Shown here: positions 23,805-42,729 of the stretch, piece by piece | How the letters are laid out: every line of letters starts with the position of its first letter | Numbering within the stretch: the first letter of the stretch is position 1 | From: Myxococcota bacterium | GTDB lineage: Bacteria > Myxococcota_A > UBA9160 > UBA6930 | Length of the DNA: 64,000 nucleotides | Reading direction: 5' to 3' | NCBI GenBank assembly: GCA_965223705.1 | Contig: OZ245015.1 | Location: forward strand, 2,496,001-2,560,000 | Position numbers and translations under genes: made by a program | Notes under the pieces: generated by a model | Database searches by the model: none | Told to the model about the DNA's origin: nothing | What the model saw: only the letters and a program-made list of their open reading frames with translations

Positions 23805-23946
23805 ACGTGCCCGAATCCCTTCTGCGGAGAAAACACCCCGCGTAGAGGTGAGTGGCTCTTTCTGCCCTCGGGGTGACGCGAAACCTGTCGAAGTTCTTTG
23901 ACACATCGCGCCGGTGCCGGAGACTCACCCACGCACAAGGGGACTC

Positions 23947-25494: not shown

Positions 25495-25644
25495 ATGGGG
25501 ATTTTTTTGCCACGCATGACGTCAATTAGACACATACTCCTGTGATACGACGGTTGGGTCTCCGCCCCCATGGGCGATTTCCAACCAGTGCCGGGCAAAC
25601 GCCCGCCAATGACAGTTAACGCTCGGTCGTAAAAGGACCCGAAC

Positions 25645-26430
25645 ATGCTCCGCTCACGCACGACACTCTTGCTTCTGTTGCTCGCGCTCTTCGCGTTCGC
25701 CAGTACTTCAGCCAGCGCGCTCCAGATCCGCATCAACAGCGGAATGATCGCGCACGACGATGGGGGCCTCGGCTTCATCGCGGGCTCGATCACTCCGAGC
25801 ACGTTCATCGACTTCGAACTCGACTGCGCCTCCGCCTCGGAGTGCACCGTCCAAGACTTCTGGTTCGGAAACAGCGTGACCCAGAATCACTTCGCGATGC
25901 TCGGCAGCTTTGACTTCAACCGAGAGCTCCGGATGCAAGACGCTGCCGGCAACCTCCTCGACGCTTCGTATCCGCACAGCAACGGCACCTCCAACATCGT
26001 GCTGACTCTCGGTGCGGGCGGCCTCGTCACGAGTGACACGCAGTACGTCGAATCCTTTGGGGTTTCGCCGTTCGGCCAAGACCCCACCGGCGAGGATTTC
26101 AGCTTCGCGCTCTCCACCGACGGCAGCTTGTTCCCGCGCGGTGGGCCGTCGAACAACGTCGGCTGCGCGGACGCCGATGTGGGCAGCGGCTTCTTCGATC
26201 TCGTCGCCGCCGGCGTGACACTGCCTTCGGGGTCGGCGATGACGGACGGGTTCAACCTCGGAAGCACCGGCACCTTGGTGGCCGTCGGTTGTTACTTCCG
26301 GCAGGAAGACGCGTACGAAGTCCCCCTGCTGATGACGCTGAACGTGGAAATCGTTCCCGAGCCGTCCACGGCGCTGCTGCTGGCTGGCGGGCTCGGCGGA
26401 ATCGCATGGTTCGGACGGCGCCGGCGCTAG
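25645..26430 (+). CDS. PEP-CTERM sorting-domain protein
   Basis: Signal peptide (ASA); C-terminal VPEPSTALLLAGGLGGIAWFGRRRR; AAGGA RBS. Confidence 0.85.
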   Translation: MLRSRTTLLLLLLALFAFASTSASALQIRINSGMIAHDDGGLGFIAGSITPSTFIDFELDCASASECTVQDFWFGNSVTQNHFAMLGSFDFNRELRMQDAAGNLLDASYPHSNGTSNIVLTLGAGGLVTSDTQYVESFGVSPFGQDPTGEDFSFALSTDGSLFPRGGPSNNVGCADADVGSGFFDLVAAGVTLPSGSAMTDGFNLGSTGTLVAVGCYFRQEDAYEVPLLMTLNVEIVPEPSTALLLAGGLGGIAWFGRRRR

Positions 26431-26511
26431 AACGCTTTTCGCCTCTGGCCTTCTAAAAACTGAATATTGGACTGGATCACTTTCTCGGAGGGGGTTATTG
26501 GGGATAAGGTG

Positions 26512-27765
26512 ATGCTGAGAACGATCCAGGCCCTGCTGACCGCCGGTGTATTGGCCACCGCAGCTCAAGCAGGCGCCGAAGCGGCCGCGAAGGCCGCAAC
26601 GACCGAGGCCACGGATGTGGCCTGCCCGACCTTCACGCAAGCTTCAAAGGGGCTCCCGGTTCGCGGAGAATGGCGAACCTACCCCGCCGTCGCGGACTTC
26701 AACGGAGACGGGCGACTCGACCTCGCCGCGACGCCGCGCAAGGACAAAGGGCCGCGCGCGTGGCTCAGCGTAAAAGACGGCTGGAAAGAGTCCTCCCTCG
26801 GGCTCGCACTGCCCGGCTACTCCTGCGGCGTCGGCTTGGCTTCGGGCGATCTGAACGGCGACGGTCATCTCGACCTGGGGGTCGCCGATCACTGCCACGG
26901 CCTGTTCGTCTATTTCGGAAACGGGAAGGGATCGTGGCGCCCCGGGCCGCAAGCACAGGTGAACCGCGGTGATCCGGGCCTCGAAGACTTGGCCCTCGGC
27001 GACATCGATGCGGACGGCGATCTCGATATCGCGACCGTCGGTGCCATCGAAGGCGGCGTGACCGTCTACCTGAACGACGGTACCGGTCGGTTCGCGAAAT
27101 CCGACACGGGCTTGCCCATCCGAGGCACGGCCAAGAACGTCGAGCTCGCCGACGTGAACGAAGACGGCTTGCTCGATATCGCCGCAAGCTATTCCGGACT
27201 CGGCAGCCAACCGACCGCCGATCCCATCACATTCAACGTGCTCTGGCTCGCTTCGAAGAACGACGAAGGCGAGCTGCGCTACACGCGGCATCGCGCCGGA
27301 CTTCCCGTCGATACACAGACCCGACGCGTCATCTTCGGCGACGTCGACCTCGACGGTCATCAAGACCTCATCGCGACCTTCGTTCCCCACAGCGAAGGGA
27401 GTCCCTTGATTCGCGTCTTCCGCGGTGACGGCGCGGGTGGCTTCGTCGAGTCGAGCGAAGGCCTGCCGCAATTCTCATCGGAAGCGCTCGTGCAACTGAG
27501 CGGCATCCGCCTGGCGGACTTGAACCGCGATGGAACTCAGGACCTCGTCGCGGTTCAAACCAATGACGACCGCTTCCACACGTGGATGGGATCGGCGTCC
27601 GGAGCGTGGCGGGCTTGCGGCTCAGCCGAGGTCGGGATCACGAAAGAAGGATCCCGCTCGATCGGCCTCGAAGTCGCCGACACCAATGCCGACGGCAAAC
27701 CCGACCTCGTGATGGCCTTCGGGCGCGTCGGCGAAGGCGGGCTCGAAGTGTGGCTCGCGAACTAG
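26512..27765 (+). CDS. Secreted FG-GAP/VCBS repeat protein (probable beta-propeller)
   Basis: Seven D-x-[ND]-x-DG-x-x-D-[LI] repeats; signal peptide. Confidence 0.85.
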   Translation: MLRTIQALLTAGVLATAAQAGAEAAAKAATTEATDVACPTFTQASKGLPVRGEWRTYPAVADFNGDGRLDLAATPRKDKGPRAWLSVKDGWKESSLGLALPGYSCGVGLASGDLNGDGHLDLGVADHCHGLFVYFGNGKGSWRPGPQAQVNRGDPGLEDLALGDIDADGDLDIATVGAIEGGVTVYLNDGTGRFAKSDTGLPIRGTAKNVELADVNEDGLLDIAASYSGLGSQPTADPITFNVLWLASKNDEGELRYTRHRAGLPVDTQTRRVIFGDVDLDGHQDLIATFVPHSEGSPLIRVFRGDGAGGFVESSEGLPQFSSEALVQLSGIRLADLNRDGTQDLVAVQTNDDRFHTWMGSASGAWRACGSAEVGITKEGSRSIGLEVADTNADGKPDLVMAFGRVGEGGLEVWLAN

Positions 27766-27850
27766 CTCTCCGCAGAACGGGCAAACGCCCGGCGGCTTAA
27801 AAAAACTTGACGGACCCACTGGGTGGAGGTGGGCTCGAAGGGAGACCCCT

Positions 27851-29524
27851 ATGAAATTTCGCATCCTCGCCCTCGTTCTCGTGTTGGTCGCCGGCTCGGT
27901 GTCGGCCTGGTGGTTCGGCGGCAAGCCGCTCCCCTCGGCCATCGCCGGGCCCCTGCCCCTCGTGATCGCTCCCGAGATTCTCGAGTTCGAGAACATCCGG
28001 GTCGGCACGAGTGACAAGCAACTCGTATCGCTGACGAACATCGGGGAAGAGATCCTCGAGCTGACCGAGCTCGAACTCGAGGGGCCCTTCTCCGCTTTCC
28101 TCGGCCCGAAGAGTGTCTTCCTCGACTCCGGGGAGACGCAGTTTCTGGCAATCACGTTTACACCGACGGAAGAAGGCCAAACCGAAGGGAGCATCGCCAT
28201 TCGCGACGCGCAGAGCCGGGAAGCTTCATCCGCGCTCACGGGGACCTCACCGACACCCCACGACGTCGCCTTGTGGCCTCGCTCTATCCGCTTCGGCGAT
28301 GTGTCCGTGGGCAATGACGCGACGGCCCTCCTCACCATCGAGAACCGCGGGTCCTTGCCGTTCACGCTTCCGGAGCTCGCTCTCGCCGACGGCTTTCATC
28401 TCGAGCCCCTGACGGCCCCGCTCGCGCCCGGTGCGCGCGAGACGGTGAAGGTACGCTTCTCGCCGCTTTCCGAAGGTCGCCACGACGGAGAACTCCTCCT
28501 GCGCGACGACGTCTTCGACCGCGACCTCGCCGTTGTCAGCTTGGCCGGTGACGGCATCGACTTCGAACTCGACGTCGCGTTCGGCGCTGCGCCACAACAC
28601 CTGGACTTCGGAACCGTCCCGCTGGGCTCCGCACGCAAAGGCTGGCTCACGTTGTCGAACAGTGGACGCGATCCGGTGACGCTCACGTCCGTGGCGGTAC
28701 CCGAAGGTTTTTCGGCGCCCGAGGGCAGCCGCGTCATCGGCGCCGGGTCAAAGCTCAGCTACCCGATCACGTTCCGGCCTACGAAGGGCGGCGACCACGC
28801 GGGCCTGGTGCAGTTCGCGACGAACACCCCGGGCGGAGATCCGGTGGGAGTCGCGCTCGCGGCGATCGGCGGCGCACTCGAAGGTTCGGGCGCCGAACCG
28901 CAGACGGCCGACTCCCGCTCAGACGCACCCACGCGCAAGAACCGCTTCGGCTTCTTCGGCACGAACGGCGAAGTGAGCTCCACCGCGGACGTGGCGAGCC
29001 TCGAGCCCGAGTTCCTCGAGCCGGTGGGTGAGGTTCCGGAAGAGTTCGGCGAAGCCGGCGACGGGCCCGTCCTCGGCCAGGGGACCTTCGCCGAGGGCAG
29101 CGACCTCGAGTTCATCGGTCTGCATGCCGACGTCGCGGACGTGCACGTCGGTGAGATTCTCGTGGACCGGCAGTCCGGCCGCGTGGAGCTCAACGACCTG
29201 CAACTCCCGAAAGTGCTCGGGCCCTTCCACGAGTGGTGGCAGGTCGTACCTACGGATGCCTTCGGGACCGTGAATGAACTGGGGGATATCGACGTCACGA
29301 TCCCCATCCAGATCGTCGACGCGGTCGGGATGGTCGTCGATTCGGAAATCCGGCTGACCACAGGGGTCTCCGAGCTGCGCGACGGCGACGAAATCCTTCA
29401 GATGTCGGGCCAGCCGCTCGATGCAAGTGGAGCGGCAAAACTCGTTTCAGTAACCATGGTCCCCTCGGGTCATCTCAAAGGGGGCGTCATGAGGGTGAAC
29501 TTCAATGTACTCGTTAACCAGTAA
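27851..29524 (+). CDS. Membrane-anchored or secreted protein with three ASH/choice-of-anchor-D-like Ig domains
   Basis: Three repeats of P..[LI].F..[IV].[VL]G....L.[LI].N.G...[IV].F.P; N-terminal hydrophobic segment; unassigned C-terminal domain. Confidence 0.7.
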   Translation: MKFRILALVLVLVAGSVSAWWFGGKPLPSAIAGPLPLVIAPEILEFENIRVGTSDKQLVSLTNIGEEILELTELELEGPFSAFLGPKSVFLDSGETQFLAITFTPTEEGQTEGSIAIRDAQSREASSALTGTSPTPHDVALWPRSIRFGDVSVGNDATALLTIENRGSLPFTLPELALADGFHLEPLTAPLAPGARETVKVRFSPLSEGRHDGELLLRDDVFDRDLAVVSLAGDGIDFELDVAFGAAPQHLDFGTVPLGSARKGWLTLSNSGRDPVTLTSVAVPEGFSAPEGSRVIGAGSKLSYPITFRPTKGGDHAGLVQFATNTPGGDPVGVALAAIGGALEGSGAEPQTADSRSDAPTRKNRFGFFGTNGEVSSTADVASLEPEFLEPVGEVPEEFGEAGDGPVLGQGTFAEGSDLEFIGLHADVADVHVGEILVDRQSGRVELNDLQLPKVLGPFHEWWQVVPTDAFGTVNELGDIDVTIPIQIVDAVGMVVDSEIRLTTGVSELRDGDEILQMSGQPLDASGAAKLVSVTMVPSGHLKGGVMRVNFNVLVNQ

Positions 29525-30029
29525 GCTCCTGTTCTTTCTCACACTTTGCGCTTTCTCGACGCTGCCCGCGGGCGCAGCGGAAGTGGACGCGGCGGTGCTC
29601 AAGGGCGTCGACGTCTCGCTCAAAGATCGCGCTACGGCCTACTGGACGGCGCGTGCGAGCCGCTCGGGAGACGTCATGCGCTTCTATGCCCCGGTCGAGA
29701 AAGGTGGCCCCAAGCGCTCTCGGGACGTCTCCGAGTTCGGGAATGTCGGATTCAAGGCGTTCGAGATCAAGAAAGCTCGGGAGAACGGAGAGTTCGGGTT
29801 GGTGACGATCGAAGTGCAGACGGACTTGCGCGGGCTCCCGCTACCCCAGAAGTTCCGGACGCAGCTGGCGACCCAGACCATCGACGAAGAGTGGTTGCGC
29901 ATCGACGACGTCTGGTACAAGAAGCCGATCCCCCGCGGGTTCTCTTCGAAGAAAGCCGCCGAAGCCGCAGCTCCGGCGGAGACTCAGGCCGACGCGGCCG
30001 CGGAGGCCCCGACGAGCCAAGCCGACTGA
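29505..30029 (+). CDS. Hypothetical secreted protein
   Basis: Signal peptide; RATAYWTAR...EEWLRIDDVWY; overlaps the upstream gene. Confidence 0.65.
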   Translation: MYSLTSKLLFFLTLCAFSTLPAGAAEVDAAVLKGVDVSLKDRATAYWTARASRSGDVMRFYAPVEKGGPKRSRDVSEFGNVGFKAFEIKKARENGEFGLVTIEVQTDLRGLPLPQKFRTQLATQTIDEEWLRIDDVWYKKPIPRGFSSKKAAEAAAPAETQADAAAEAPTSQAD

Positions 30030-30074
30030 GTTCGTAGGCGAAAGCCCACCGCGGGACCAACGACCGCGGCATCG

Positions 30075-30115
30075 AGCACCCGAGGGGATTGCCTCTCGGG
30101 TGCTTGTTTTTTTTT
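30075..30115 (+). terminator. Intrinsic terminator upstream of the array
   Basis: agcacccgagggg-attg-cctctcgggtgct stem followed by a long T run. Confidence 0.8.
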
Positions 30116-30258
30116 GGAAAGTGCCACACATTTGCATGTGCCGTAGCCAAAATACGGCGTGGAAGGTGCTCACGGTAGACGCCCTCCGGGCTTAACCACA
30201 CGCCCAACGCAAGTACGATGCAAGTAATGCAGTGCACAACCAAAAGGAAACAATCAGG

Positions 30259-31380
30259 ATGCTGAAACTTACACGGCTGGCCGCGATCGTATTCGCGACC
30301 TTCCTCTTTAGCGGCACCAGCCACGCCGCCCTCGATCTGATGGATCACTCAGCGACGGGAAGCATTGTCTCGACGCCCTGGCTCGCGACAGGCGAGCGGG
30401 TCACCGTCGTGACGCTCACCAACGCCCTCGCGGACCCGATCACCGTTCACTGGACGGCGCTCAACAACAAGTGGCAGGGCATCGACTTCGACTGCCCGCT
30501 TTCGCCGATGGAGACGACCTACTTCGTCTTTGAGTCGAACAACGCGGGTGGCGCGAAGATCACGTACGAGTGCAGCGATATCTCCCAGAGCAATCTGAAT
30601 ATCGTGCGCACGCAGTTCATTCCGGGTGCCGACACGGAGCGCGAAGGCTTCATCGTGTTCCACGCCACCCTCGGTGCGGGCGTTCCGCCGAACCCGGCGA
30701 ACATCGTTGCCCTGATCGCTGACTTCACCGTCATCGACTTCAACCAGGGCTACGCATTCTCGGCGAACGGCTGGCACTTCCAGGTGCAGGGCAACACCCA
30801 GAACAACACGCTGCAGGTCCCGACGGTCCTCGCCTCGAGCTTCATCGCTCCCGACGACGACATCACGGCGGAGCTTCTGCTCTACACGCTCCACGGGCGC
30901 ATCGGCTGGAACTCCCCGGTCAGCATCGGCGGTCTGGCCTACGACGACGACGAGCAGCCGCTCTCGAACAGCCACAAGTACGACTGCTTCACGATCGTTT
31001 CGCTCGAGAGCATCTTCGGGCTCAGCATCTTGCGCCAGAACGGTCCCGGCGGTTTCCCGTACTTCGTGGGTCACGTGAGCCTGTTCGCACTGGTGGATCC
31101 GCTCGCGTACCTCCCGCCCTTCGGTTTCGGTCCGTTCCGGTCCGCGTCGGTGGGGTACATCATCCAGACGATCGGTGCGCTTGCGCCGGATGACGGAGCC
31201 GACTTGAACGACGGCCAGAACCTGAACGGCACGGCGGGCGGCGCGATCAACTTCGCGGACGCCTTGGCGCCTGGCCAGAAGGCCGCATGGGCTCGCAAGC
31301 TTCTGAAGACGACCATCCAGACGCCGATTTGTAACGCCCTCGACGTCACTCAGGATCCGCCGGCCGGCTGCGGCACGTGA
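30259..31380 (+). CDS. Secreted array protein, copy 1 (class A)
   Basis: Signal peptide MLKLTR...SHA; shares SPMETTYFVFE, SFIAPDDD and NGPGGFPYFVGHVSLFAL with the other copies. Confidence 0.9.
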   Translation: MLKLTRLAAIVFATFLFSGTSHAALDLMDHSATGSIVSTPWLATGERVTVVTLTNALADPITVHWTALNNKWQGIDFDCPLSPMETTYFVFESNNAGGAKITYECSDISQSNLNIVRTQFIPGADTEREGFIVFHATLGAGVPPNPANIVALIADFTVIDFNQGYAFSANGWHFQVQGNTQNNTLQVPTVLASSFIAPDDDITAELLLYTLHGRIGWNSPVSIGGLAYDDDEQPLSNSHKYDCFTIVSLESIFGLSILRQNGPGGFPYFVGHVSLFALVDPLAYLPPFGFGPFRSASVGYIIQTIGALAPDDGADLNDGQNLNGTAGGAINFADALAPGQKAAWARKLLKTTIQTPICNALDVTQDPPAGCGT

Positions 31381-31521
31381 TCCACGCGTAGAAGCGGTGC
31401 CTTGACGTAAAGACAAGGCACGACGCGCACAGGAGGCCCGAGAGCGAGTCAGCATGCTCGCTCTCGGGCCCACCCTTTGATCCTCACGGCCCGCTTCAGG
31501 GCAAGCAACGAGACGACAAGC

Positions 31522-32589
31522 ATGAGACGGCTGGCATTCGCGACGTGTTTCGCAGTCCTCCTCTTTGCCCTTCCGGGCTCCGCCGCCCTCAACCTGTCGA
31601 GTCCGACGGCCGTCGGCGGCGTCGCATCAGCGCCCTGGTTCAGTGAGAACGGCCAGGTCACGATCATCACGCTCACGAACGGCAGCTCGGCGTGGACGAC
31701 CGTTCACGTCATCCTCTCGGACGCGAACTGGAAAGCGCTCGATTACGACTGCCGCCTCTCGCCAATGGAAACGACCTACTTCGTGTTCGAGGCGGCCTCG
31801 ACCGGCTCGAAAGTGACGAACGAGTGCAGCTCTGATTTCCCGGCCTGGAATCAACAGCTGAACATCGTCACGACCCGCTACATCCCCGGAGATCGGCGGG
31901 GCTTTGCGGTCTTCCAGCAGAACGTGAACGCCGACGCGCAGAACGTTCTCATCGCGGATTTCACCGTCATCGATTTCAACCGCGGGCTCAGCTATTCGGC
32001 GAATGCGTGGCACGTCCAGGCACTCGCGGGAAGCGCCGACCACAATCTCAGCTTCGACAACGTCGAGTACGCCCAGGTCCCGCGGAACCTCGCGATGAGC
32101 TTCATCGCGCCCGACGACGACGTCACGGCCGAGCTCATCCTGTACACACTGAACGGGCGCCTGCTCGAGGCGCCTCCCGTGCTCCTCGGTGCGCTCGCGT
32201 ACGACGACGATGAGAACGCCTTATCCAACACCCACGAATACACGTGCTTTACGGTCGTATCGCTCGAAACCATCTTCGGGCTCGGGATCCGGCGGGAAAA
32301 CGGGCCCGGCGGCTTCCCTTACTTCGTCGGGCACGTCTCCTTGTTTGCCCTCGTTCACGCGGGTGGCTACACGGGCGTCGGCAACCCGCCCGGCGCGATT
32401 TCCCACTCGTTCGGCTGGCTGCTGCAGACGATCGCGAACGGTGGCGACCTGAACGACAACGCGCCGTTGGGGCCGCCCGAACCGAACTTCGGAAACTCGA
32501 TGCCCGGGGCCGCTGCGTGGGCTCGCCCCGCGCTGCGAACGGTCGAGACCGTGCCGGCGCAGTTTGACGCGGATCCCCGCGGTCCCTAG
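31522..32589 (+). CDS. Secreted array protein, copy 2 (class B)
   Basis: Signal peptide MRRLAF...; same invariant blocks; ends DADPRGP. Confidence 0.9.
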   Translation: MRRLAFATCFAVLLFALPGSAALNLSSPTAVGGVASAPWFSENGQVTIITLTNGSSAWTTVHVILSDANWKALDYDCRLSPMETTYFVFEAASTGSKVTNECSSDFPAWNQQLNIVTTRYIPGDRRGFAVFQQNVNADAQNVLIADFTVIDFNRGLSYSANAWHVQALAGSADHNLSFDNVEYAQVPRNLAMSFIAPDDDVTAELILYTLNGRLLEAPPVLLGALAYDDDENALSNTHEYTCFTVVSLETIFGLGIRRENGPGGFPYFVGHVSLFALVHAGGYTGVGNPPGAISHSFGWLLQTIANGGDLNDNAPLGPPEPNFGNSMPGAAAWARPALRTVETVPAQFDADPRGP

Positions 32590-32725
32590 ACGCCAGCGCC
32601 CCCCCCAAACGACTTGCCACCGATTTGCCGCTCCCCTGCGGATAGAGCGCACAAACCCGACGTACGCCGTCACTTCCCCGCGTTCCCGGAGACTCACTCT
32701 CACTGGCTACTCGTGAAGGGGTCCC

Positions 32726-33802
32726 ATGAAGCATCGGCTATTCGTCGGTTGTCTATTCGCTCTACTGGTAATGGGGTGGAGCGACGCATCATTCAGCGCG
32801 GTCACGGCGAGCGATCACAGCGCTGTGGGAGCCGTGGTCACGAACCCGTGGCTCGTCGATGGCGACCGACTCACGCTCGCGACGCTGACGAACGGCAGTA
32901 GTTTCTGGATCACGGTTCACGTGACCGTGTTCGATGCCGCTTGGCAGCCGATCAACTTCGATTGCAAGCTGTCCCCGATGGAAACGACCTACTTCGTGTT
33001 CGAAGCGCACAGTGTCGGATCGAAGCTCACTTCGGAATGTAGCGACCCGATTTCCGGCAACTTGAACATCGTGCAGACCCGCTTCGTCCCGGGAGAGCGC
33101 GACGGGTTTGTCGTGTTCCACCACACCTTGGTCCCCGGCGCCACGACGCCGCAGAACGTCCTCATCGGCGATTTCGTCGTGATCGATTTCGACCAGGGAT
33201 ACGCGTTCTCGGCGAACGCCTGGCATGTGCAGGCGCTGGCGGGAAGCACCGACCAGAATCTCATCTTCGACGGGACCGAGTTTGCGCAACTACCAAAGGT
33301 CCTGGCCGGAAGCTTCATCGCGCCCGACGACGACATCACCGCAGATCTCATCCTCTATACGCTGAACGGAGCGTTGGGCTGGCCCGCGGAAGTGAAGTTG
33401 GGCGGCATCGTCTACGACGACGATGAGCAGGCGCTCTCGAACGTTCACGAATACGACTGCTTCACCGTGGTCTCGCTGATCGATGTGTTCGGCCTGAGCG
33501 TCGACCGGCGGAACGGTCCCGGCGGCTTTCCCTACTTCGTGGGGCACGTCAGCCTCTTCGCTCTCTTCGCCCCGGGCGGCTACGCCGGTGCGACCGCGCC
33601 TCCTGGCGCCGTTGCGAGCTCGCTCGGTTGGATCGTTCAGACCATGGCCGACATCGGCGACCTGAACGACAACCAGCCCCTCGGTCATCAGCCGAACTTC
33701 GGCAACGTTTCCTCCGGCCAGTCCGCCTGGGCCCGGCAGTTATTGACGACCCAGGATTCCATCCCGAACCGCCTCGACGCCGATCCTCGAGGCGGCGCCT
33801 AG
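32726..33802 (+). CDS. Secreted array protein, copy 3 (class B)
   Basis: Signal peptide; same invariant blocks; ends DADPRGGA. Confidence 0.9.
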   Translation: MKHRLFVGCLFALLVMGWSDASFSAVTASDHSAVGAVVTNPWLVDGDRLTLATLTNGSSFWITVHVTVFDAAWQPINFDCKLSPMETTYFVFEAHSVGSKLTSECSDPISGNLNIVQTRFVPGERDGFVVFHHTLVPGATTPQNVLIGDFVVIDFDQGYAFSANAWHVQALAGSTDQNLIFDGTEFAQLPKVLAGSFIAPDDDITADLILYTLNGALGWPAEVKLGGIVYDDDEQALSNVHEYDCFTVVSLIDVFGLSVDRRNGPGGFPYFVGHVSLFALFAPGGYAGATAPPGAVASSLGWIVQTMADIGDLNDNQPLGHQPNFGNVSSGQSAWARQLLTTQDSIPNRLDADPRGGA

Positions 33803-33819
33803 ACACCACAAGCTCTTCG

Positions 33820-33894
33820 CGTCTCAAGACGAACGAGCTGATTCCGAACTACCACTCCCTCGACGTGACGACGGACGAGATTTGCGTGTTCTGA
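33820..33894 (+). pseudogene. Orphan 3' end of a probable additional class-A array gene
   Basis: Translates RLKTNELIPNYHSLDVTTDEICVF*, resembling LLKT...NALDVT...C of class-A tails; followed by the class-A terminator. Confidence 0.55.
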
Positions 33895-33926
33895 GTTCTC
33901 GGCAGACACTCGCGTGTGTCGATCCC

Positions 33927-33964
33927 GGCGCCTGGAAGGTTCTCCTTCCGGGCGCCTTCTTGTT
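33927..33964 (+). terminator. Array-family terminator hairpin
   Basis: ggcgcctggaagg-ttct-ccttccgggcgcc followed by ttcttgtt. Confidence 0.7.
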
Positions 33965-34120
33965 GCGCATGGCTTCACCGCAATTGCGCATCCCTTGCGC
34001 ACCGACCGTTTTTTCTGACACCAAGTGACGTTTTTCGCCACTACCTCCTAGACGCCTGTCGCCGCGGTGGTGACCGGCTTGAACGGGTGATCCCGTTCGC
34101 GCGTATCAAGGAGTTTTCTC

Positions 34121-35206
34121 ATGCTGAAGCTGAAGCACATCTTGGTCGCCGCCGTTGCGGCGATCTTCCTGTCGAGCCCGGGTCTCGCCGCGCTCCCCCT
34201 GATGGACCACGCGGCCACCGGTAGCCTCGTGTCCACGCCGTGGCTCGCCACGGGCAAGCGCGTCACCGTCACGACGCTGACCAACGCCCTCGCGGACCCG
34301 ATCACGGTCCACTTCACGGCGCTCAACAACAAGTGGCAGGGAATCGACTTCGATTGCCCCCTCTCCCCCATGGAGACCACCTACTTCGTGTTCGAGTCCA
34401 ACGCTGCGGGTGGCGCCAAGGTCACGTTCGAGTGCAGTGACATCACCCAGAGCAACCTGAACATCGTCCGCACCCTCTTCATCCCGGGTGCTGCCGATGA
34501 GCGCGAAGGCTTCATCGTCTTCCACACGACGGCCGGCGTGGGCTTCCCCACTCCGAACCCGGCGAGCGTCCAGTCCCTCATCGCTGACTTCACCGTCATC
34601 GACTTCGACCAGGGCTATGCGTTCTCCGCCAACGGCTGGCACTTCCAGGTGCAGGGCACGAACCAGAACAACTCGCTCACCGTCCCGGCGACCCTCGCGT
34701 CGAGCTTCATCGCTCCCGACGACGACATCACGGCCGAGCTCCTCCTCTACACCCTCCACGGTGCGATTGGTTGGAACTCCCCGGTCAAGTTCGGTGGTCT
34801 CGCCTACGATGATGACGAGCAGCCCCTCTCGAACACCCACGAGTACGACTGCTTCACGGTCGTGTCCCTCGAGGACATCTTCGGCCTGAGCATCGATCGT
34901 CGGAACGGTCCGGGCGGCTTCCCGTACTTCGTCGGCCACGTGAGCCTCTTCGCGTTGGTTCACCCCTTGGCCGCGATCCCGGGCAACTCCTTCGCTCCGT
35001 ACCAGTCGGCTTCGGTGGGCTACATGATCCAGACCATCGCGAGCGGTGGCGACCTGAACGACAACGTTCAGCTCGGCCCGATCCAGCCGAACTTCGGTGA
35101 GACGATGCCGGCCAACGCGGCTTGGGCGCGCAAGCTCCTCAAGACGATCCAGCCGGCTCAGCCCCAGTGCAACGCGCTCGACGTGACGATCGCTGGTGGC
35201 TGCTAG
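34121..35206 (+). CDS. Secreted array protein, copy 4 (class A)
   Basis: AAGGAG RBS, signal peptide MLKLKH...GLA, invariant blocks. Confidence 0.92.
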   Translation: MLKLKHILVAAVAAIFLSSPGLAALPLMDHAATGSLVSTPWLATGKRVTVTTLTNALADPITVHFTALNNKWQGIDFDCPLSPMETTYFVFESNAAGGAKVTFECSDITQSNLNIVRTLFIPGAADEREGFIVFHTTAGVGFPTPNPASVQSLIADFTVIDFDQGYAFSANGWHFQVQGTNQNNSLTVPATLASSFIAPDDDITAELLLYTLHGAIGWNSPVKFGGLAYDDDEQPLSNTHEYDCFTVVSLEDIFGLSIDRRNGPGGFPYFVGHVSLFALVHPLAAIPGNSFAPYQSASVGYMIQTIASGGDLNDNVQLGPIQPNFGETMPANAAWARKLLKTIQPAQPQCNALDVTIAGGC

Positions 35207-35247
35207 CCTCCTGTCTTAAGCGGGCATCGGCCTGCGACATGACACCC

Positions 35248-35285
35248 GGCGCCCGGAAGGTTTTCCTTCCGGGCGCCTTCTTTTT
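35248..35285 (+). terminator. Array-family terminator
   Basis: ggcgcccggaagg-tttt-ccttccgggcgcc followed by ttcttttt. Confidence 0.85.
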
Positions 35286-35455
35286 ACGCCGGGTCTACTA
35301 CGACCGTTTGCACCACAGTTGCGCATCCCTTGCGCACCGACCGTTTTTTCTGACACCAAGTGACGTTTTTCGCCACTACCTCCTAGACGCCTGTCGCCGC
35401 GGTGGTGACCGGCTTGAACGGGTGATCCCGTTCGCGCGTATCAAGGAGTTTTCTC

Positions 35456-36544
35456 ATGCTGAAGCTGAAGCACATCTTGGTCGCCGCCGTTGCGGCGATC
35501 TTCCTGTCGAGCCCGGGTCTCGCCGCGCTCCCCCTGATGGACCACGCGGCCACCGGTAGCCTCGTGTCCACGCCGTGGCTCGCCACGGGCAAGCGCGTCA
35601 CCGTCACGACGCTGACCAACGCCCTCGCGGACCCGATCACGGTCCACTTCACGGCGCTCAACAACAAGTGGCAGGGAATCGACTTCGATTGCCCCCTCTC
35701 CCCCATGGAGACCACCTACTTCGTGTTCGAGTCCAACGCTGCGGGTGGCGCCAAGGTCACGTTCGAGTGCAGTGACATCACCCAGAGCAACCTGAACATC
35801 GTCCGCACCCTCTTCATCCCGGGTGCTGCCGATGAGCGCGAAGGCTTCATCGTCTTCCACACGACGGCCGGCGTGGGCTTCCCCACTCCGAACCCGGCGA
35901 GCGTCCAGTCCCTCATCGCTGACTTCACCGTCATCGACTTCGACCAGGGCTATGCGTTCTCCGCCAACGGCTGGCACTTCCAGGTGCAGGGAACGAACCA
36001 GAACAACTTCCTCCCGGTCCCGGCGACCCTCGCGTCGAGCTTCATCGCTCCCGACGACGACATCACGGCCGAGCTCCTCCTCTACACGCTCAATGGGCGC
36101 ATTGGTTGGAACTCCCCGGTCAAGTTCGGTGGTCTCGCCTACGATGATGACGAGCAGCCCCTCTCGAACACCCACGAGTACGACTGCTTCACGGTCGTGT
36201 CCCTCGAGGACATCTTCGGCCTGAGCATCGATCGTCGGAACGGTCCGGGCGGCTTCCCGTACTTCGTCGGCCACGTGAGCCTCTTCGCCCTGATTTCGCC
36301 CTTGGCCGTGGTCAACGGCGTTACGTTCGGCCCGTGGCAGTCGGCTTCGGTGGGCTACATGATCCAGACCATCGCGAGCGGTGGCGACCTGAACGACAAC
36401 GTTCAGCTCGGCCCGATCCAGCCGAACTTCGGTGAGACGATGCCGGCCAACGCGGCTTGGGCGCGCAAGCTCCTCAAGACGATCCAGCCGGCTCAGCCCC
36501 AGTGCAACGCGCTCGACGTGACGATCGTTGGTAACTGCAACTAG
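35456..36544 (+). CDS. Secreted array protein, copy 5 (class A)
   Basis: Near-identical to copy 4. Confidence 0.92.
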   Translation: MLKLKHILVAAVAAIFLSSPGLAALPLMDHAATGSLVSTPWLATGKRVTVTTLTNALADPITVHFTALNNKWQGIDFDCPLSPMETTYFVFESNAAGGAKVTFECSDITQSNLNIVRTLFIPGAADEREGFIVFHTTAGVGFPTPNPASVQSLIADFTVIDFDQGYAFSANGWHFQVQGTNQNNFLPVPATLASSFIAPDDDITAELLLYTLNGRIGWNSPVKFGGLAYDDDEQPLSNTHEYDCFTVVSLEDIFGLSIDRRNGPGGFPYFVGHVSLFALISPLAVVNGVTFGPWQSASVGYMIQTIASGGDLNDNVQLGPIQPNFGETMPANAAWARKLLKTIQPAQPQCNALDVTIVGNCN

Positions 36545-36585
36545 CCCCATGTCCTGCGCAGGCACCGGCCTGTGATGCGACACCC

Positions 36586-36625
36586 GGCGCCCGGAAGGTT
36601 TTCCTTCCGGGCGCCTTCTTTTTTT
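36586..36625 (+). terminator. Array-family terminator
   Basis: Same hairpin as after copy 4, with T tract. Confidence 0.85.
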
Positions 36626-36691
36626 GTCACTTCCAGGCGATTTCAGCCACTTCCTTGATGGACCTGCCCGACGAGCAGGAGGAGTGTTCCC

Positions 36692-37780
36692 ATGCTGAAG
36701 TTGAAATCGTTCTTGCTGGTTGCTGTGGCTTCCTTGCTCATCGCGAGCCCCGGCCTTGCCGCGCTCAACCTGATGGACCACGCGGCCACCGGCAGCATCG
36801 TCTCGACGCCGTGGTTGGCCGAAGGTCATCGAACCACCGTCACGACCCTGACGAATGCCCTTGCGCAGACCGTCACCGTCCACGTGACCGCGCTCGACAG
36901 CCAGTGGCAGCCCCTCGACTTCGACTGCCAGCTCTCCCCCATGGAGACCACCTACTTCGTGTTCGAGACCAACGGCACGAACGGCGCCAAGATCACGTCC
37001 GAGTGCAGCGACGTCTCGCAGAGCAATCTCAACATCGTGCAGACCCGCTTCATTCCGGGGCAGCAGAATGGCTTTGTCGTGTTCCACACGACGGCCGGCG
37101 CGGGCGTTCCGCCGAATCCCACGGACAACGGCGTGTCGCTCATCGCGGACTTCACGGTCATCGACTTCGACCAGGGCTATGCCTTCTCCGCCAACGGCTG
37201 GCATTTCCAGACCCAGGGTGCGACCCAAAACAACACGCTCCAGATCCCGCAGGTCCTCGCGTCGAGCTTCATCGCCCCGGATGACGACATCACCGCGGAG
37301 CTCCTCCTCTACACGCTTCATGGGCGTGCGGGATGGAACTCCCCGGTCAAGCTCGGCGGGCTCGCTTACGACGACGACGAGCAGCCCCTCTCGAACGTCC
37401 ATGAGTACGACTGCTTCACGATCGTTGCGCTCGAAGACATCTTCGGCCTGAGCATCGATCGCCGAAACGGCCCGGGCGGCTTCCCGTACTTCGTCGGCCA
37501 CGTGAGCCTCTTCGCGCTCATCCATCCTCTGGCCTACGACCCGACCACCGGTTCGTTCGGTCCGTTCTTGTCCGCTTCGGTGGGATACATCGTCCAGACC
37601 ATCGCGAGCGGCGGCGACCTGAACGACAACGTCCGGCTCGGCCCGATCCAGCCGAACTTCGGCGACAGCATGCCCGCCATGGGTGCTTGGGCCCGAAAGC
37701 TCCTGAAGTCGCAGGACCAGACCCCGGTCTGCAACGCGCTCGACGTCACCCAGGATCCGCCCGTTACTTGCGGCACCTGA
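36692..37780 (+). CDS. Secreted array protein, copy 6 (class A)
   Basis: AGGAGGAG RBS, signal peptide, invariant blocks; ends CNALDVTQDPPVTCGT. Confidence 0.92.
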   Translation: MLKLKSFLLVAVASLLIASPGLAALNLMDHAATGSIVSTPWLAEGHRTTVTTLTNALAQTVTVHVTALDSQWQPLDFDCQLSPMETTYFVFETNGTNGAKITSECSDVSQSNLNIVQTRFIPGQQNGFVVFHTTAGAGVPPNPTDNGVSLIADFTVIDFDQGYAFSANGWHFQTQGATQNNTLQIPQVLASSFIAPDDDITAELLLYTLHGRAGWNSPVKLGGLAYDDDEQPLSNVHEYDCFTIVALEDIFGLSIDRRNGPGGFPYFVGHVSLFALIHPLAYDPTTGSFGPFLSASVGYIVQTIASGGDLNDNVRLGPIQPNFGDSMPAMGAWARKLLKSQDQTPVCNALDVTQDPPVTCGT

Positions 37781-37809
37781 TCGGCGGAATCCACGGATTG
37801 TTTCCGTCG

Positions 37810-37845
37810 ACGCCCGGAGGGCTTCAGGCCTTCCGGGCGTTTTGT
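37810..37845 (+). terminator. Terminator closing the array
   Basis: acgcccggagggc-ttcag-gccttccgggcgt followed by tttgt. Confidence 0.75.
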
Positions 37846-39278
37846 CTTCCGCGGTCGACGTAGGTCACGACGAGAGCGACGAGGAGGTTCGCAAAGGCGC
37901 CGATCACACCGATGTGGAAGCCCTCGATGCGCTTGAAGCCCCCGAGCGCGGCCCCTACGGCGACCGTTGTCCCGACGACCAGCCCGCAAAGTGCGGCCCG
38001 GGCCGAGAAGCGCTTCCAATGAATGGCTACGAGGAATGCTGGCGCGCACTGGATCAGGATCTCCATCTTGAGCTCGATGAGCCGCCAGAGACTGAGCTTC
38101 GGCATCAGCGCAAAGCCCAGCGCGATGAGCATCACCAGCGCTGCGGCGCGCTTTCCGGTGCGGGTCGTCGCCGGATCGTGGCGGTCGCGACCGAGCAGGT
38201 CGCAGGCAATCACCGAGCCCAGTGAAAGAAGGACCGAGTCGGCCGTCGACATGATCGCCGCCAGAGCCCCGATGAAGACCGCGACGGCAAAGACGGCGTT
38301 GATGGAGCTCGTCGCCGCCCACTCGCTGAGAAGCCGCGGCATGACCGTATCGGCTTCGACCGTGCCCAGGCCCGCGAACCGAGGAATCGCCGCAATCCCG
38401 ATCAACATGACCACGAAGGTGGTGGTGAGCGGCATGAAGCCCATGAGCGCGAGCGCGCGCTTCAGCTCGCCGCCGCTTCGCGCGGCGAAAATGCGCTGAA
38501 TCGCCTGGGGGTACATCAGTCCGCCGAAGCCGAGAAGCACCACGGTGGAGATCCAGTTCCAGCGCTCGGGCCAATCCGGCACGGCGACGGCCTCGGGGCG
38601 CACTCGGGCGACCTCGCGGGCGAGTCCCGCGAGTCCCGCGCCGTCGATGGCAACCCAGTGCAGGAGGAGGCCCAAGCCCACCAGCATGAGAAGCCCCTGG
38701 GCAGTGTCCGTCCAGGCGACGGCGCGCATGCCGCCCAAGGTCTCGTACACGAGGATGAACGCGGCCAACCCGACGACCGCGACCCAGTAGGGCACGAGCC
38801 CCCCCGTCACTTCCCCGGTGACGTGCCCCATGGCGACGAGCTGCGCGAGAAGAAAGTTGCCCAGCGCGAGGATCATCAAGGCGGCAACCGCCACTTCGAG
38901 AGCGCGACCGAGCGGCTCCCCCGCGAACCGATGGCGCAAGAAATCCCCGGGTGTCACGAACCCTTCGCGCGTCGCGAGCGGCCGGAGCTTCGGAACGAGG
39001 ATCTGGAACGTCACCATGATCGACATCATCATGCCGGTCGAGATGATCCAGGCGTAGCCGCGCCGGTAGCCCTCGCCGGGATAACCGAGGAGTGAGTTGC
39101 CGCTGTACGTCGTGGCGTAGAGGGTCATCAGCAACACGAAGAAACCGAGGCCCCGGGACGCCAAGAAATGGTCGTCCGGCGAATGATCGCGACGCGCCCG
39201 GCGCGCGACTTCGGCGAGGCCGATGAGCGCGACGAGGTACACCGCAAGACACAGCGCGCCGAGGTCGCCGAAGCTCAT
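37824..39278 (-). CDS. Sodium:solute symporter family protein
   Basis: Polytopic membrane protein; YETLGGMRAVAWTD and AAIMSTADS motifs. Confidence 0.9.
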   Translation of the reverse strand: MSFGDLGALCLAVYLVALIGLAEVARRARRDHSPDDHFLASRGLGFFVLLMTLYATTYSGNSLLGYPGEGYRRGYAWIISTGMMMSIMVTFQILVPKLRPLATREGFVTPGDFLRHRFAGEPLGRALEVAVAALMILALGNFLLAQLVAMGHVTGEVTGGLVPYWVAVVGLAAFILVYETLGGMRAVAWTDTAQGLLMLVGLGLLLHWVAIDGAGLAGLAREVARVRPEAVAVPDWPERWNWISTVVLLGFGGLMYPQAIQRIFAARSGGELKRALALMGFMPLTTTFVVMLIGIAAIPRFAGLGTVEADTVMPRLLSEWAATSSINAVFAVAVFIGALAAIMSTADSVLLSLGSVIACDLLGRDRHDPATTRTGKRAAALVMLIALGFALMPKLSLWRLIELKMEILIQCAPAFLVAIHWKRFSARAALCGLVVGTTVAVGAALGGFKRIEGFHIGVIGAFANLLVALVVTYVDRGRQNARKA

Positions 39279-40250: not shown

Positions 40251-41195
40251 ATGACAAATGTTTCCGAGACTGGCGAGCCTGCTGCAACGACCGTCGACTT
40301 GGCAAAAATGGGGCGCGCCGGGCTCGGGGGCGTGCTGATGGGGCTCGCGAACCTGGTGCCCGGCATCTCGGGTGGCACCATGCTGCTGGCCTCCGGGGTG
40401 TATCCCGACTTCATCGAGGGCGTCGCGCGTTTCTCGACCTTGCGCTGGCGGCACCCGTCGGTGATCGCGCTCGCCATCGTCCTCGCCTGCGCCCTCGCGG
40501 CCTTGATCTTGTTCGCCGGACCGGTACGCGACGCGGTAATCCACCACCGCGTGGCGATGTACAGCGTGTTCATCGGGCTGACGCTCGGCGGGGTCCCGAT
40601 CGTCTGGATCTTGGCGCGACCCTTCGGGACGACCTTCTGGCTTTGGGCCGGGCTGGCGTTCGGCCTCATGGTGACGATGGCGTGGGTCGAGCCCGCCGGT
40701 GGCGGCGAGGCCGATGTCGCGCTGCTCTTCGTCGCGGGGCTCGCCGGCGCCAGCGCGATGATCTTGCCGGGTATCAGCGGCGGCTACTTGCTGCTCCTCC
40801 TCGGTCAGTACCTTCCGATTCTCGGCGCCATCGACGGTCTCAAGGCGGCCCTTCCCTCGCTCCGCGCTGGCGAACTCGCGCCCGAGCTGATCGCTGCGCT
40901 CGGTGTGGTCGTGCCCGTAGGTCTGGGTTGGGCTTGTGGGGTGGTCGTGGTGAGCAATGCACTCCGCTTCGCCCTGCAGCGCTTCCGTCAACCCACCCTC
41001 GGCACGCTCCTCGGGCTGTTGGTCGGCGCGGTCGCAGGACTCTGGCCGTTTGAACGCGTCGGTGAAACCGGCGAGCGACTCGGCCGCTACATACCCGAAG
41101 CACCCGAGTTCCTGCTCGCCCTGGCGCTCGTCGCGGCGGGCTTTGCCCTCACCGTCCTCATCGGGCGTCTCGGGGGCACGCCGCGCCTCGACTGA
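40251..41195 (+). CDS. DUF368 family membrane protein
   Basis: MGLANLVPGISGGT and AMILPGISG repeats. Confidence 0.88.
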   Translation: MTNVSETGEPAATTVDLAKMGRAGLGGVLMGLANLVPGISGGTMLLASGVYPDFIEGVARFSTLRWRHPSVIALAIVLACALAALILFAGPVRDAVIHHRVAMYSVFIGLTLGGVPIVWILARPFGTTFWLWAGLAFGLMVTMAWVEPAGGGEADVALLFVAGLAGASAMILPGISGGYLLLLLGQYLPILGAIDGLKAALPSLRAGELAPELIAALGVVVPVGLGWACGVVVVSNALRFALQRFRQPTLGTLLGLLVGAVAGLWPFERVGETGERLGRYIPEAPEFLLALALVAAGFALTVLIGRLGGTPRLD

Positions 41196-41388
41196 GGGGG
41201 TGAGGGGTCCGGCCCGTCCCAAATTGGGAAAAAGAGTTCCACTGCGCGCGCCTTCTGCGGGCGGCAGCGGATGCGCAACAAACTCTCGAACTCGTGACCG
41301 CAAGGCACTTTTCCGCGCTTCCGGTGGGTCCGCACGCTTCTTGCAACAGCAGAAGCCGGATGGATCCAACGCTCCGGGGGGAGACTTC

Positions 41389-42729
41389 ATGACCGCACTC
41401 TCGCGGCTTGTGTTGATCGCGGTACTGCCCAGTGCACTCGCACTCGGTTGCGCGTATCAAAACATCAAGGCAGACAACGACGATCAGCCCCAGATCCACA
41501 CCGGCGTCGGCGCCAGCATCTTGTATCCAGGCGGCCGAGGGCCGGCCTTTCCGACGATGCCTCCGGGCGCACTCGGTGGCGGGGGTGGCACCCAGTCGCA
41601 GTCGAGCCGCAACGGACAACAGTCCGGAAGCCACAGCCAGCACGGCGGAGGTCCCGCCCAAGGCAGCAGCGCCGCCGATCCCGAGCGGAGCGGCGGTGGC
41701 TTGACCTATCTCGGCGGGAACCAAGGTTCCGAAAGCTCGAGTCGAACGATCAAGCAAGAGCCCCAGGTACTGAAAGTCCTGACGACTCCCGTGGCGATCG
41801 CCGCCTATCCGTTCAAGAAAGCCGCCGATGCGCTTCGCAAGGACGAGTCTCCGCCCGAAGCCGCCGCACCGAGCGAGCCGACGCGCCCGGCGACCGCCGA
41901 CGTTCACGCCGAGCACGAACGCGCAGAGCTCGAAGCCATGCGCCGGGACCTCGAAACGCGCGAAGCGCCGGAGCGGAGCGCGGCGCGGGCGACATCTTCC
42001 CGACGTCCGACGTCTCTCGCCGACGAGCTGGCCCGATTGCGGGGCGGCGAAGCCACGACGGCCCCCGGCACGGATTACGCCCGCGTCGAGCCGACCGATA
42101 CCTACCGACGCCGACCGGAGATCGTCGGCGCGGACCGCGTCGCGGACCGGAATCAAGACGGACAGCCGGACCACTGGCGTTTCCTCGAAGCCGGACAGCT
42201 CGCGCGCGAACAATTCGATGACAACGCAGACGGCACCCCGGACCGAACCGTCTTCTACGATGCTGCGACCGGAGAGCGCGCCCGGCTCGAAGAAGACAGC
42301 AACGGAGACGGTGTCACCGACACGTGGGTCGATTACCGCGATGGCGTTGTGTCGAAGCGACGCGGCGACGGCGACGGCGACGGTCAGATCGACCGCTGGG
42401 TGTTCTACCGCCGCGGCCAGATTTCGCGGCTCGAAGAGGACCTCGACGGCGACGGCTACCGCGATCGCGTAGGCCACTACGAGGGCGGGAAGGTCGCACG
42501 CGAAGAAGAAGATCGGGACGGGGACGGTCGAACGGATCGAATCTCCTTCTACGATGCTTCCGAGACGCTGACCCGGCGCGACGAAGACCGCGATGGCGAC
42601 GGGGTGATCGACGTTCGTTCCCACTACGAAAACGGCAAGCTCGCCCGCCGCGAAATGGTCGAACAGGCCGCCGACGAGCGCGTCGAGCCCGAACCGCTGC
42701 GCCCCGATCCGGCGTTCGGCGACGGGTAG
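41389..42729 (+). CDS. Lipoprotein with seven DxDxDG-containing ~24-aa repeats
   Basis: LALGC lipobox; Gly/Gln-rich linker; D.[DN].DG..D....Y repeats. Confidence 0.75.
   Translation: MTALSRLVLIAVLPSALALGCAYQNIKADNDDQPQIHTGVGASILYPGGRGPAFPTMPPGALGGGGGTQSQSSRNGQQSGSHSQHGGGPAQGSSAADPERSGGGLTYLGGNQGSESSSRTIKQEPQVLKVLTTPVAIAAYPFKKAADALRKDESPPEAAAPSEPTRPATADVHAEHERAELEAMRRDLETREAPERSAARATSSRRPTSLADELARLRGGEATTAPGTDYARVEPTDTYRRRPEIVGADRVADRNQDGQPDHWRFLEAGQLAREQFDDNADGTPDRTVFYDAATGERARLEEDSNGDGVTDTWVDYRDGVVSKRRGDGDGDGQIDRWVFYRRGQISRLEEDLDGDGYRDRVGHYEGGKVAREEEDRDGDGRTDRISFYDASETLTRRDEDRDGDGVIDVRSHYENGKLARREMVEQAADERVEPEPLRPDPAFGDG

Follow-up and report, generated by a model that had tools for sequence, protein, structure and literature searches.

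Tandem paralogous proteins with export signals and predicted twin ASRT/TM1070-like domains in a Myxococcota bacterium: a candidate S-layer-like subunit family

Results

An array of six paralogues with export signals

We analysed a window of 64,000 nucleotides from a Myxococcota bacterium of the lineage UBA9160 (GenBank assembly GCA_965223705.1, contig OZ245015.1, positions 2,496,001 to 2,560,000; genome G000). Its forward strand carries a tandem array of six intact open reading frames (ORFs) of 355-373 amino acids, whose products are considered here as candidate subunits of an exported, surface layer (S-layer)-like polymer. The products are 48-96% identical in pairs (E<=1e-100), far beyond chance, and the six co-oriented paralogues that a first-pass annotation had placed here are thus confirmed. 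Positions below are those of the window unless a locus or genome is named, and the genes and terminators described in the window lie on the plus strand.

Four of the genes form class A: copy 1 (30259..31380, 373 aa), copy 4 (34121..35206, 361 aa), copy 5 (35456..36544, 362 aa) and copy 6 (36692..37780, 362 aa; orthologue P0007). Copies 4 and 5, which are 96% identical, are the likely major subunits. Class B consists of the likely minor subunits, copy 2 (31522..32589, 355 aa; orthologue P0013) and copy 3 (32726..33802, 358 aa; orthologue P0012). The motif blocks quoted in the first-pass annotation are invariant across all six copies, and its three conserved cysteines are common to them all; class A has two additional cysteines at the C-terminus. 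A seventh full copy, the only further one found by tblastn of the source genome, lies outside the array (G000:C1:1703718-1704809). It is solitary (locus L013), nearest to copy 1, surrounded by catabolic genes and ordinary in its codon usage. Sec-type signal peptides were read by eye in all seven copies, and the same reading bears out that the six array proteins have no C-terminal membrane or sorting tail.

Terminators divide the array. An intrinsic one with a 15-pair stem and a T run separates it from the genes upstream (30073..30106), and others follow copy 3 (33927..33956), copy 4 (35248..35277), copy 5 (36586..36615) and, at the array end, copy 6 (37809..37841), so that copies 4, 5 and 6 each have their own, as noted earlier. 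Strong ribosome-binding sites had been ascribed to the whole of class A; they are present at copies 4, 5 and 6, but the spacing is weaker at copy 1. Copy 2 has no obvious ribosome-binding site. A sigma-70 promoter scan gave 0 sites, and an Rfam search of 25000-38200 gave no match. TTGCGCA elements are repeated upstream of copies 4 and 5 (33961-34000 and 35300-35335) and may be a regulator site.

Both halves of each protein are predicted to have the ASRT/TM1070 fold

The array proteins match no Pfam or NCBIfam family over the cut-off, including ASRT (PF07100) and the S-layer family Slr4 (PF19526), and sequence searches of the PDB with three profiles gave nothing significant. The AlphaFold2 model of copy 6 is all-beta with two domains (predicted local distance difference test, pLDDT, 84; predicted template modelling score, pTM, 0.87). 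In the search with the whole model, the best structural match of the C-terminal domain 2 is Thermotoga TM1070 (PDB 1NC7; Z 7.8, root-mean-square deviation (rmsd) 2.2, 108 of 116 residues aligned). Foldseek with the whole two-domain model returned only poor matches against the PDB and viral models (template modelling score, TM, <0.3), and domain 1 was therefore folded separately. Its model (pLDDT 92.8) matches TM1070 with Z 11.2 and rmsd 2.4 over 105 residues, and by Foldseek with E 9e-5 and TM 0.69 by target. The match of domain 1 to ASRT has Z 7.2, and unrelated sandwiches reach at most 6.8. By the TM1070 matches of both domains, each chain is predicted to combine two ASRT/TM1070-like domains, which belong to the ASRAH superfamily. 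The earlier view that no known domain could be assigned thus holds for sequence libraries but not for structure.

Two residues define ASRAH domains, a Trp where strand 1 begins and an Asn where strand 2 ends (De Souza, Iyer and Aravind 2009, PMC2739507). Domain 1 keeps the Asn (N32, 95% conserved) at the end of a strand 2 that reads RVTVTTLTN, and domain 2 is without it. As to the Trp, all seven copies of this genome have a Pro-Trp pair, and family-wide the Pro alone is conserved (96%). The ligand signature of ASRT, SHEshChhN, is absent. When each domain was compared by HHalign with a shallow ASRT profile of six sequences, the match was not significant, so the link to ASRAH is structural; domain 1 against domain 2 was not significant either. 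Across 125 aligned relatives, conservation above 90% is confined to G, P, T, N and L residues and one Cys, and there is no invariant catalytic set.

We regard the array proteins as a family, and the genes that accompany them as a cassette, that have not been described before; the fold itself is known. No description of the family was found among the papers listed on S-layers in Myxococcota, on UBA9160 or on ASRAH, although the supplements of an S-layer survey may list a relative. An Slr4 neighbour in the Atlas (0.78) was not accepted as support; Atlas clusters at 0.95 are unnamed.

A predicted homodimer with a conserved interface

Two mature chains of copy 4 are strongly predicted to form a symmetric homodimer. 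The interface score ipSAE is 0.82 (0.82, 0.81 and 0.83 in the single runs), and the best of 3 controls has 0.00; at least 89% of contacts are common to the runs, and pLDDT is at least 79. Of proteins solved as same-chain pairs, 20 of 30 reach this mark, and of those solved as single chains 1 of 23; these counts apply roughly, since we used our own alignment. The predicted interface comprises the blocks SPMETTY, DF.VIDF..G...S, YDDDE, VGH and AAWAR of the first-pass annotation. Among the six paralogues, 44 of the 79 interface positions are invariant, compared with 80 of 259 in the rest of the chain (Fisher p 1e-4), which makes heterodimers between copies plausible as far as the model goes. At the protein level copies 4 and 5 have 15 differences, all of them outside the interface; this is modest evidence, because the differences cluster in four patches.

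Each of the 125 aligned relatives has either both or neither of the cysteines C56 and C82, which implies a disulfide. C221 is conserved in 119 of these relatives and has no covarying partner. The number of cysteines is odd in all seven mature chains of this genome and, by a rough count, in 94 of the 125 relatives. A disulfide between dimers through the unpaired C221 is offered purely as a hypothesis.

Codon usage as a proxy of expression

Codon bias was ranked among 3011 self-called genes of at least 200 aa by the codon adaptation index (CAI) and by an independent index of eight amino acids. Copies 4, 5, 1 and 6 take ranks 3, 4, 27 and 66 by CAI and ranks 1, 2, 10 and 42 by the second index, where GroEL is at 7 and EF-Tu at 52. 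Copies 3, 2 and 7 are ordinary (205, 305 and 736; by CAI, copies 2 and 3 are at 417 and 912), and the upstream helper genes described below range from 93 to 2137. The bias of copies 4 and 5 is not explained by the local strand background (0.749 vs 0.754). Hence the codon usage of highly expressed genes, which had been noted for the array, is a property of class A and does not extend to copies 2 and 3. Glycine codons split high and low copies in genome G347 and are high in G326. Some unrelated exported proteins of the source genome also have high-expression codon usage (G000:C1:906081-907454, 4332342-4333685 and 1507376-1509868).

Copies 4 and 5 within a stable set of subtypes

Copy 4 lies in a duplicated unit of 1335 nt (33976..35310) made of its upstream region, the gene and its terminator; the second unit starts at 35311. 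The two units are identical over 33984-34656 (673 nt) and in three further runs. The 15 non-synonymous and 5 synonymous codon differences between the copies are all within four patches (34657-34681, 34753-34765, 34954-35002 and a fourth that starts at 35193). None of the patches has a counterpart in another copy of the genome, so an internal donor system is lacking, and no long inverted repeats were found flanking the array. The remaining pairs of copies are old, with 38-65% difference at four-fold sites.

A second, related assembly (longest contig 25,939 nt) supplied six family proteins for a tree of 18 rows. Copies 1, 2, 3 and 6 have one-to-one orthologues in it (support 81/57, 100/99, 100/99 and 95/95), and so are fixed subtypes. 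The subunits had been proposed to be interchangeable; these four are stable, and only copies 4 and 5 are homogenised. The two proteins of the second assembly that resemble copies 4 and 5 group together, with 14 informative sites by genome and 0 by position. In these comparisons, the major pair has either evolved in concert or been duplicated in parallel, and the set of subtypes around it is stable.

That copies 4 and 5 are an assembly artefact was considered and rejected: the depth is about twofold over their shared parts, and two such copies also occur in the second assembly. The contig depth of shared and unique parts is 15.4-17 vs 8.2-11 in X1, which may be the source sample, and 5.5-6.2 vs 2.4-3.1 in X4; it is not to be read as a copy number.

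A helper cassette upstream of the array

The locus extends upstream to about 25645 and includes a cassette of four genes that the first-pass annotation did not mention. The first encodes a PEP-CTERM protein (25645..26430; PF07589 and TIGR02595 over the cut-off), a candidate surface anchor. It is followed by an FG-GAP beta-propeller protein with a signal peptide (26467..27765, likely start ATG 26512; PF13517, E 2e-44) and by a protein with three ASH/choice-of-anchor-D immunoglobulin-like domains, an acidic linker and a C-terminal domain of no known family (27851..29524; PF15780, NF012200). The ASH protein is N-terminally hydrophobic, and such a segment is found in all orthologues seen. The last gene (29505..30029) encodes a small exported protein with an RA..YW motif, no lipobox and no Pfam match, likely NTF2/SnoaL-like; its named Atlas neighbours are all NTF2-like at 0.86-0.88, which serves as a lead only. 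The genome has one copy each of the FG-GAP, ASH and small genes.

A PEP-CTERM gene also precedes the FG-GAP gene in loci L022, L039, L091 and L099. A 65% paralogue of the window's PEP-CTERM protein lies at C1:3613408. In G009, a genome of the same family as the source genome, and in G326, the PEP-CTERM proteins that precede the cassette (L011 751-1725 and L099 4955-5659) resemble by eye the C-terminal domain of the ASH protein (29078-29524); that of the window looks unlike them.

Immediately upstream of the cassette lies a gene for a TMTC-like membrane glycosyltransferase (PMT and TPR; 23914-25494), and its homologues adjoin genes of the family or of the cassette in L035 (39%) and L099 (28%). 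The subunits or helpers may thus be glycosylated. An ORF downstream of the array (40957-42729) looks like that of a lipoprotein; it has many DxDxDG repeats and matches no Pfam family.

Distribution of the family and its cassette

Among 225 genomes of the class, the family occurs in seven, as full-length members in six and as a short fragment in G019. The small protein is found in the same six and as one marginal match (E 9e-4), and the C-terminal domain of the ASH protein in exactly these six, which span four families. The order FG-GAP, ASH, small protein and family gene recurs in the window and in L022, L025, L039, L055 and L091; L020 and L051 show the part of the cassette that their contigs cover, and L099 ends after the small gene. 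FG-GAP orthologues of 41-45% identity stand immediately 5' of the ASH gene in L022, L025, L039, L055, L091 and L099. In a screen of 35 loci, many of them short contigs or dispersed extra copies, the small gene was present at 6 and the ASH gene at 5. The number of family copies per genome ranges from 1 to about 9; the first-look scoring took 6-9 candidates per genome, so copies may be missed. In G448 a second small gene and two family copies appear to be broken by frameshifts (L091 15983-17990 and L093 8248-9560), either as pseudogenes or through errors in the assembly. Both G448 and L020 have small genes scattered between the family copies. L020 and L025 correspond to G347 and G368, of the same order as the source genome; their titles, 'uncultured Spirochaetales', are probably mislabels.

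In a phylum-wide sample of 301 genomes G000 alone has the family, and the other members were thus found only through the class-wide search. None of 83 pattern matches in viral contigs encodes a relative. A profile search gave 416 clusters at E<=0.001 and 94 at 1e-30, and the best 150 of the 416 were examined. No Pfam family covers the shared domain in the 54 relatives that were scanned with Pfam. Some relatives are fused to FG-GAP, DUF11, Big_5, MopE or Dicty repeats, and three carry PEP-CTERM-like tails (P0076 over the cut-off, P0084 and P0125 by motif). These architectures point to the shared domain as a module used on cell-surface proteins.

Discussion

A proposed exported polymer of major and minor subunits

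We suggest, with a probability of about 0.5, that the six proteins build a structural polymer of the cell envelope that is exported, likely S-layer-like and not yet described. Copies 4 and 5, and also 1 and 6, would be its major subunits, and copies 2 and 3 its minor ones. The proposal of an abundant exported structural protein, already made in the first-pass annotation, agrees with the codon ranks 1 and 2, the predicted homodimer, the missing catalytic set and the relatives with PEP-CTERM tails or adhesin fusions. Patchy occurrence and multiple copies are described for bacterial S-layers (10.1101/2024.05.28.596244, consulted in part), and the array family has the same pattern; Myxococcota are not named in the portion of this survey consulted.

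In the proposed mechanism, copies 4/5, 1 and 6 would be made as dimers in very large amounts, and copies 2, 3 and 7 in smaller ones. The subunits would be exported by Sec and may pass the outer membrane via one of the unlinked type II systems. Paralogues could mix into heterodimers through the shared interface, and the dimers would join into a sheet or fibre, possibly via the unpaired conserved Cys221. Tethering might be provided by PEP-CTERM-bearing or ASH-stalk partners, and the coat or fibre would be assembled with low-copy helper partners that are transcribed separately from the array. Exposed loops may diversify under phage or predator pressure with the interface fixed, and gene conversion would keep the frame of copies 4 and 5 identical. 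At its fullest, this would amount to a new class of surface layer: ASRAH twin-sandwich dimers, cross-linked by cysteines and mixed from paralogues, tethered by the PEP-CTERM, FG-GAP, ASH and NTF2-like partners and displaying adhesins fused to the same module. We regard this fuller version as tentative and, taken whole, somewhat doubtful.

Several observations weigh against the exported polymer. The modelling covered two copies, in a closed two-fold dimer, and the dimer score may echo the solved tetramer of TM1070, which shares the fold at 10-12% identity. Copies 4 and 5 are likely very abundant, an estimate that takes codon usage as its proxy. By leave-one-out, the ribosomal genes are only weakly biased here, a log-ratio codon score put copy 6 at rank 1211, and in five other genomes and two metagenome loci the codon signal of family copies is not clearly above that of the few neighbours compared. 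The subunits have no anchor domain that we could find. No linked secretion system was found at the locus, unlike at npdA, vapA, slr4 and rsaA (PMC10765051, consulted in part); the genome has five secretins, including a full type II cluster, the nearest about 76 kb from the array. The ASH protein looks, from its sequence, anchored in the inner membrane, which fits a periplasmic site. The helper profiles were seeded partly from G000, G009, G347 and G368, so that the independent matches are those in G448 and G326 only. The fold itself, finally, is one for which sugar binding in the clefts of the dimer interface is predicted (PMC2739507, as far as consulted).

That last point leads to an alternative in which the proteins are soluble or loosely attached dimeric lectins or adhesins of the ASRAH type, which bind sugars or other ligands through variable loops that set specificity and form no lattice. 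We consider it possible, though improbable. Both domains have the fold, an acidic cluster of E62, D207-E210 and H250 lies in the predicted interface, stable paralogue subtypes would suit different ligands, and the domain does occur as a module on adhesin-like proteins. However, the ASRT ligand signature is lacking and, in the predicted dimer, the corresponding face of the strand abuts the partner chain, the acidic residues are only 61-75% conserved, codon ranks of 1 and 2 exceed the usual need of a binding protein, and the conserved neighbours include no genes of sugar transport or catabolism. It is rather unlikely that the dimers never reach the surface and make up a scaffold between the membranes, held by the ASH stalk, the FG-GAP propeller and the NTF2-like protein. 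The hydrophobic N-terminus of every ASH orthologue seen and the lack of a linked outer-membrane exporter would fit such a site, and disulfides are equally compatible with the periplasm; diversification restricted to loops suggests selection from outside, however, and PEP-CTERM genes flank the cassette and PEP-CTERM tails occur in some relatives.

Two other explanations we consider very unlikely. One would see the array as phase-variable cassettes like those of Campylobacter fetus sap, with one copy expressed and the others kept as silent donors, as the tandem paralogues, the mosaic differences and the homogenised frame of copies 4 and 5 might suggest. Yet every copy is full-length and co-oriented, copies 4 and 5 have identical upstream regions and terminators of their own, no long inverted repeat flanks the array, the patches of copies 4 and 5 have no match in other copies of the genome, and copies 1, 2, 3 and 6 are syntenic subtypes. 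The other, equally improbable, is a family of secreted enzymes, such as a multicopper-oxidase-like or glutamic peptidase-like sandwich. Its basis is a sub-threshold Pfam match to Cu-oxidase_3 in 4 of 18 members (best E 2.7e-4), together with Foldseek matches to eqolisin peptidases (ranks 4-5, rmsd 8). The oxidase match reaches at best 19.2 bits in the window vs a cut-off of 21 and covers N-terminal strands only, the conserved His motifs are absent and no His is conserved above 73%, the 125 relatives share no invariant polar catalytic set, and TM1070 stands far above all enzyme matches.

Bacterial S-layer proteins have many independent origins and are unidentified in most uncultured phyla. The present locus is a candidate open to experiment, for which a building block is predicted, assembly factors are proposed and the variable loops are mapped. 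If the fuller version given above is true, Myxococcota would have their first S-layer-like coat, and the very widespread ASRAH fold would gain a structural role. If the proteins do polymerise, they would be small (36 kDa) self-assembling proteins with loops tolerant of insertions, and other unnamed ASRT-like secreted families of environmental bacteria would perhaps be coats or scaffolds rather than sugar sensors.

Comparison with known systems

The sap locus of Campylobacter fetus has a single promoter, invertible or silent cassettes and type I export. Its paralogues of a surface protein are clustered and have shared and variable segments, as do the paralogues of the array (PMC3887049, consulted in part). 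Unlike sap, the array has no inversion geometry and no evident promoterless donors, and has Sec-type signals and fixed subtypes.

The array proteins are similar to ASRAH proteins (ASRT, PDB 2II7, PF07100; TM1070, PDB 1NC7) in the beta-sandwich of both domains. Secreted ASRAH members occur as dyads or tetrads, and sugar binding is predicted for the superfamily; the array protein is a secreted dyad, and its predicted dimer gives four domains, as expected from that work (PMC2739507, in the part consulted). In contrast to the known members, with 10-12% identity, the array proteins have no profile match and no SHEshChhN, are neither lipoproteins nor fused to amidases, and have long insertions, a likely disulfide, an unpaired Cys and a helper cassette of their own. 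ASRT proper is a stand-alone cytoplasmic domain, in contrast to these two-domain proteins with signal peptides. The array family is not among the three families that PMC2739507 describes in the portion consulted.

The S-layer proteins NpdA (PMC10765051), Slr4 (PF19526, PMC7821379), VapA of Aeromonas and mela_00855 of Methylomirabilis (PMC8671808), as portrayed in the parts of these sources consulted, resemble the array proteins in having a signal peptide without a Pfam domain. Like these proteins of diderms, the array proteins are acidic, likely very abundant and patchily distributed. The array family is set apart from NpdA and mela_00855 by description, not by sequence. Unlike the loci of NpdA, Slr4 and VapA, the array has no adjacent type II cluster and is multi-copy with helper genes. 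In mela_00855, of similar size, a putative dimer is the lattice unit; it has an IPTL-CTERM tail, which the array subunits lack. The archaeal SlaA and SlaB of Sulfolobus (PMC12175726, consulted in part) are unrelated in sequence to the array proteins, but their pairing of an anchorless lattice subunit with a membrane stalk would be paralleled here by the array subunit and the ASH or PEP-CTERM protein.

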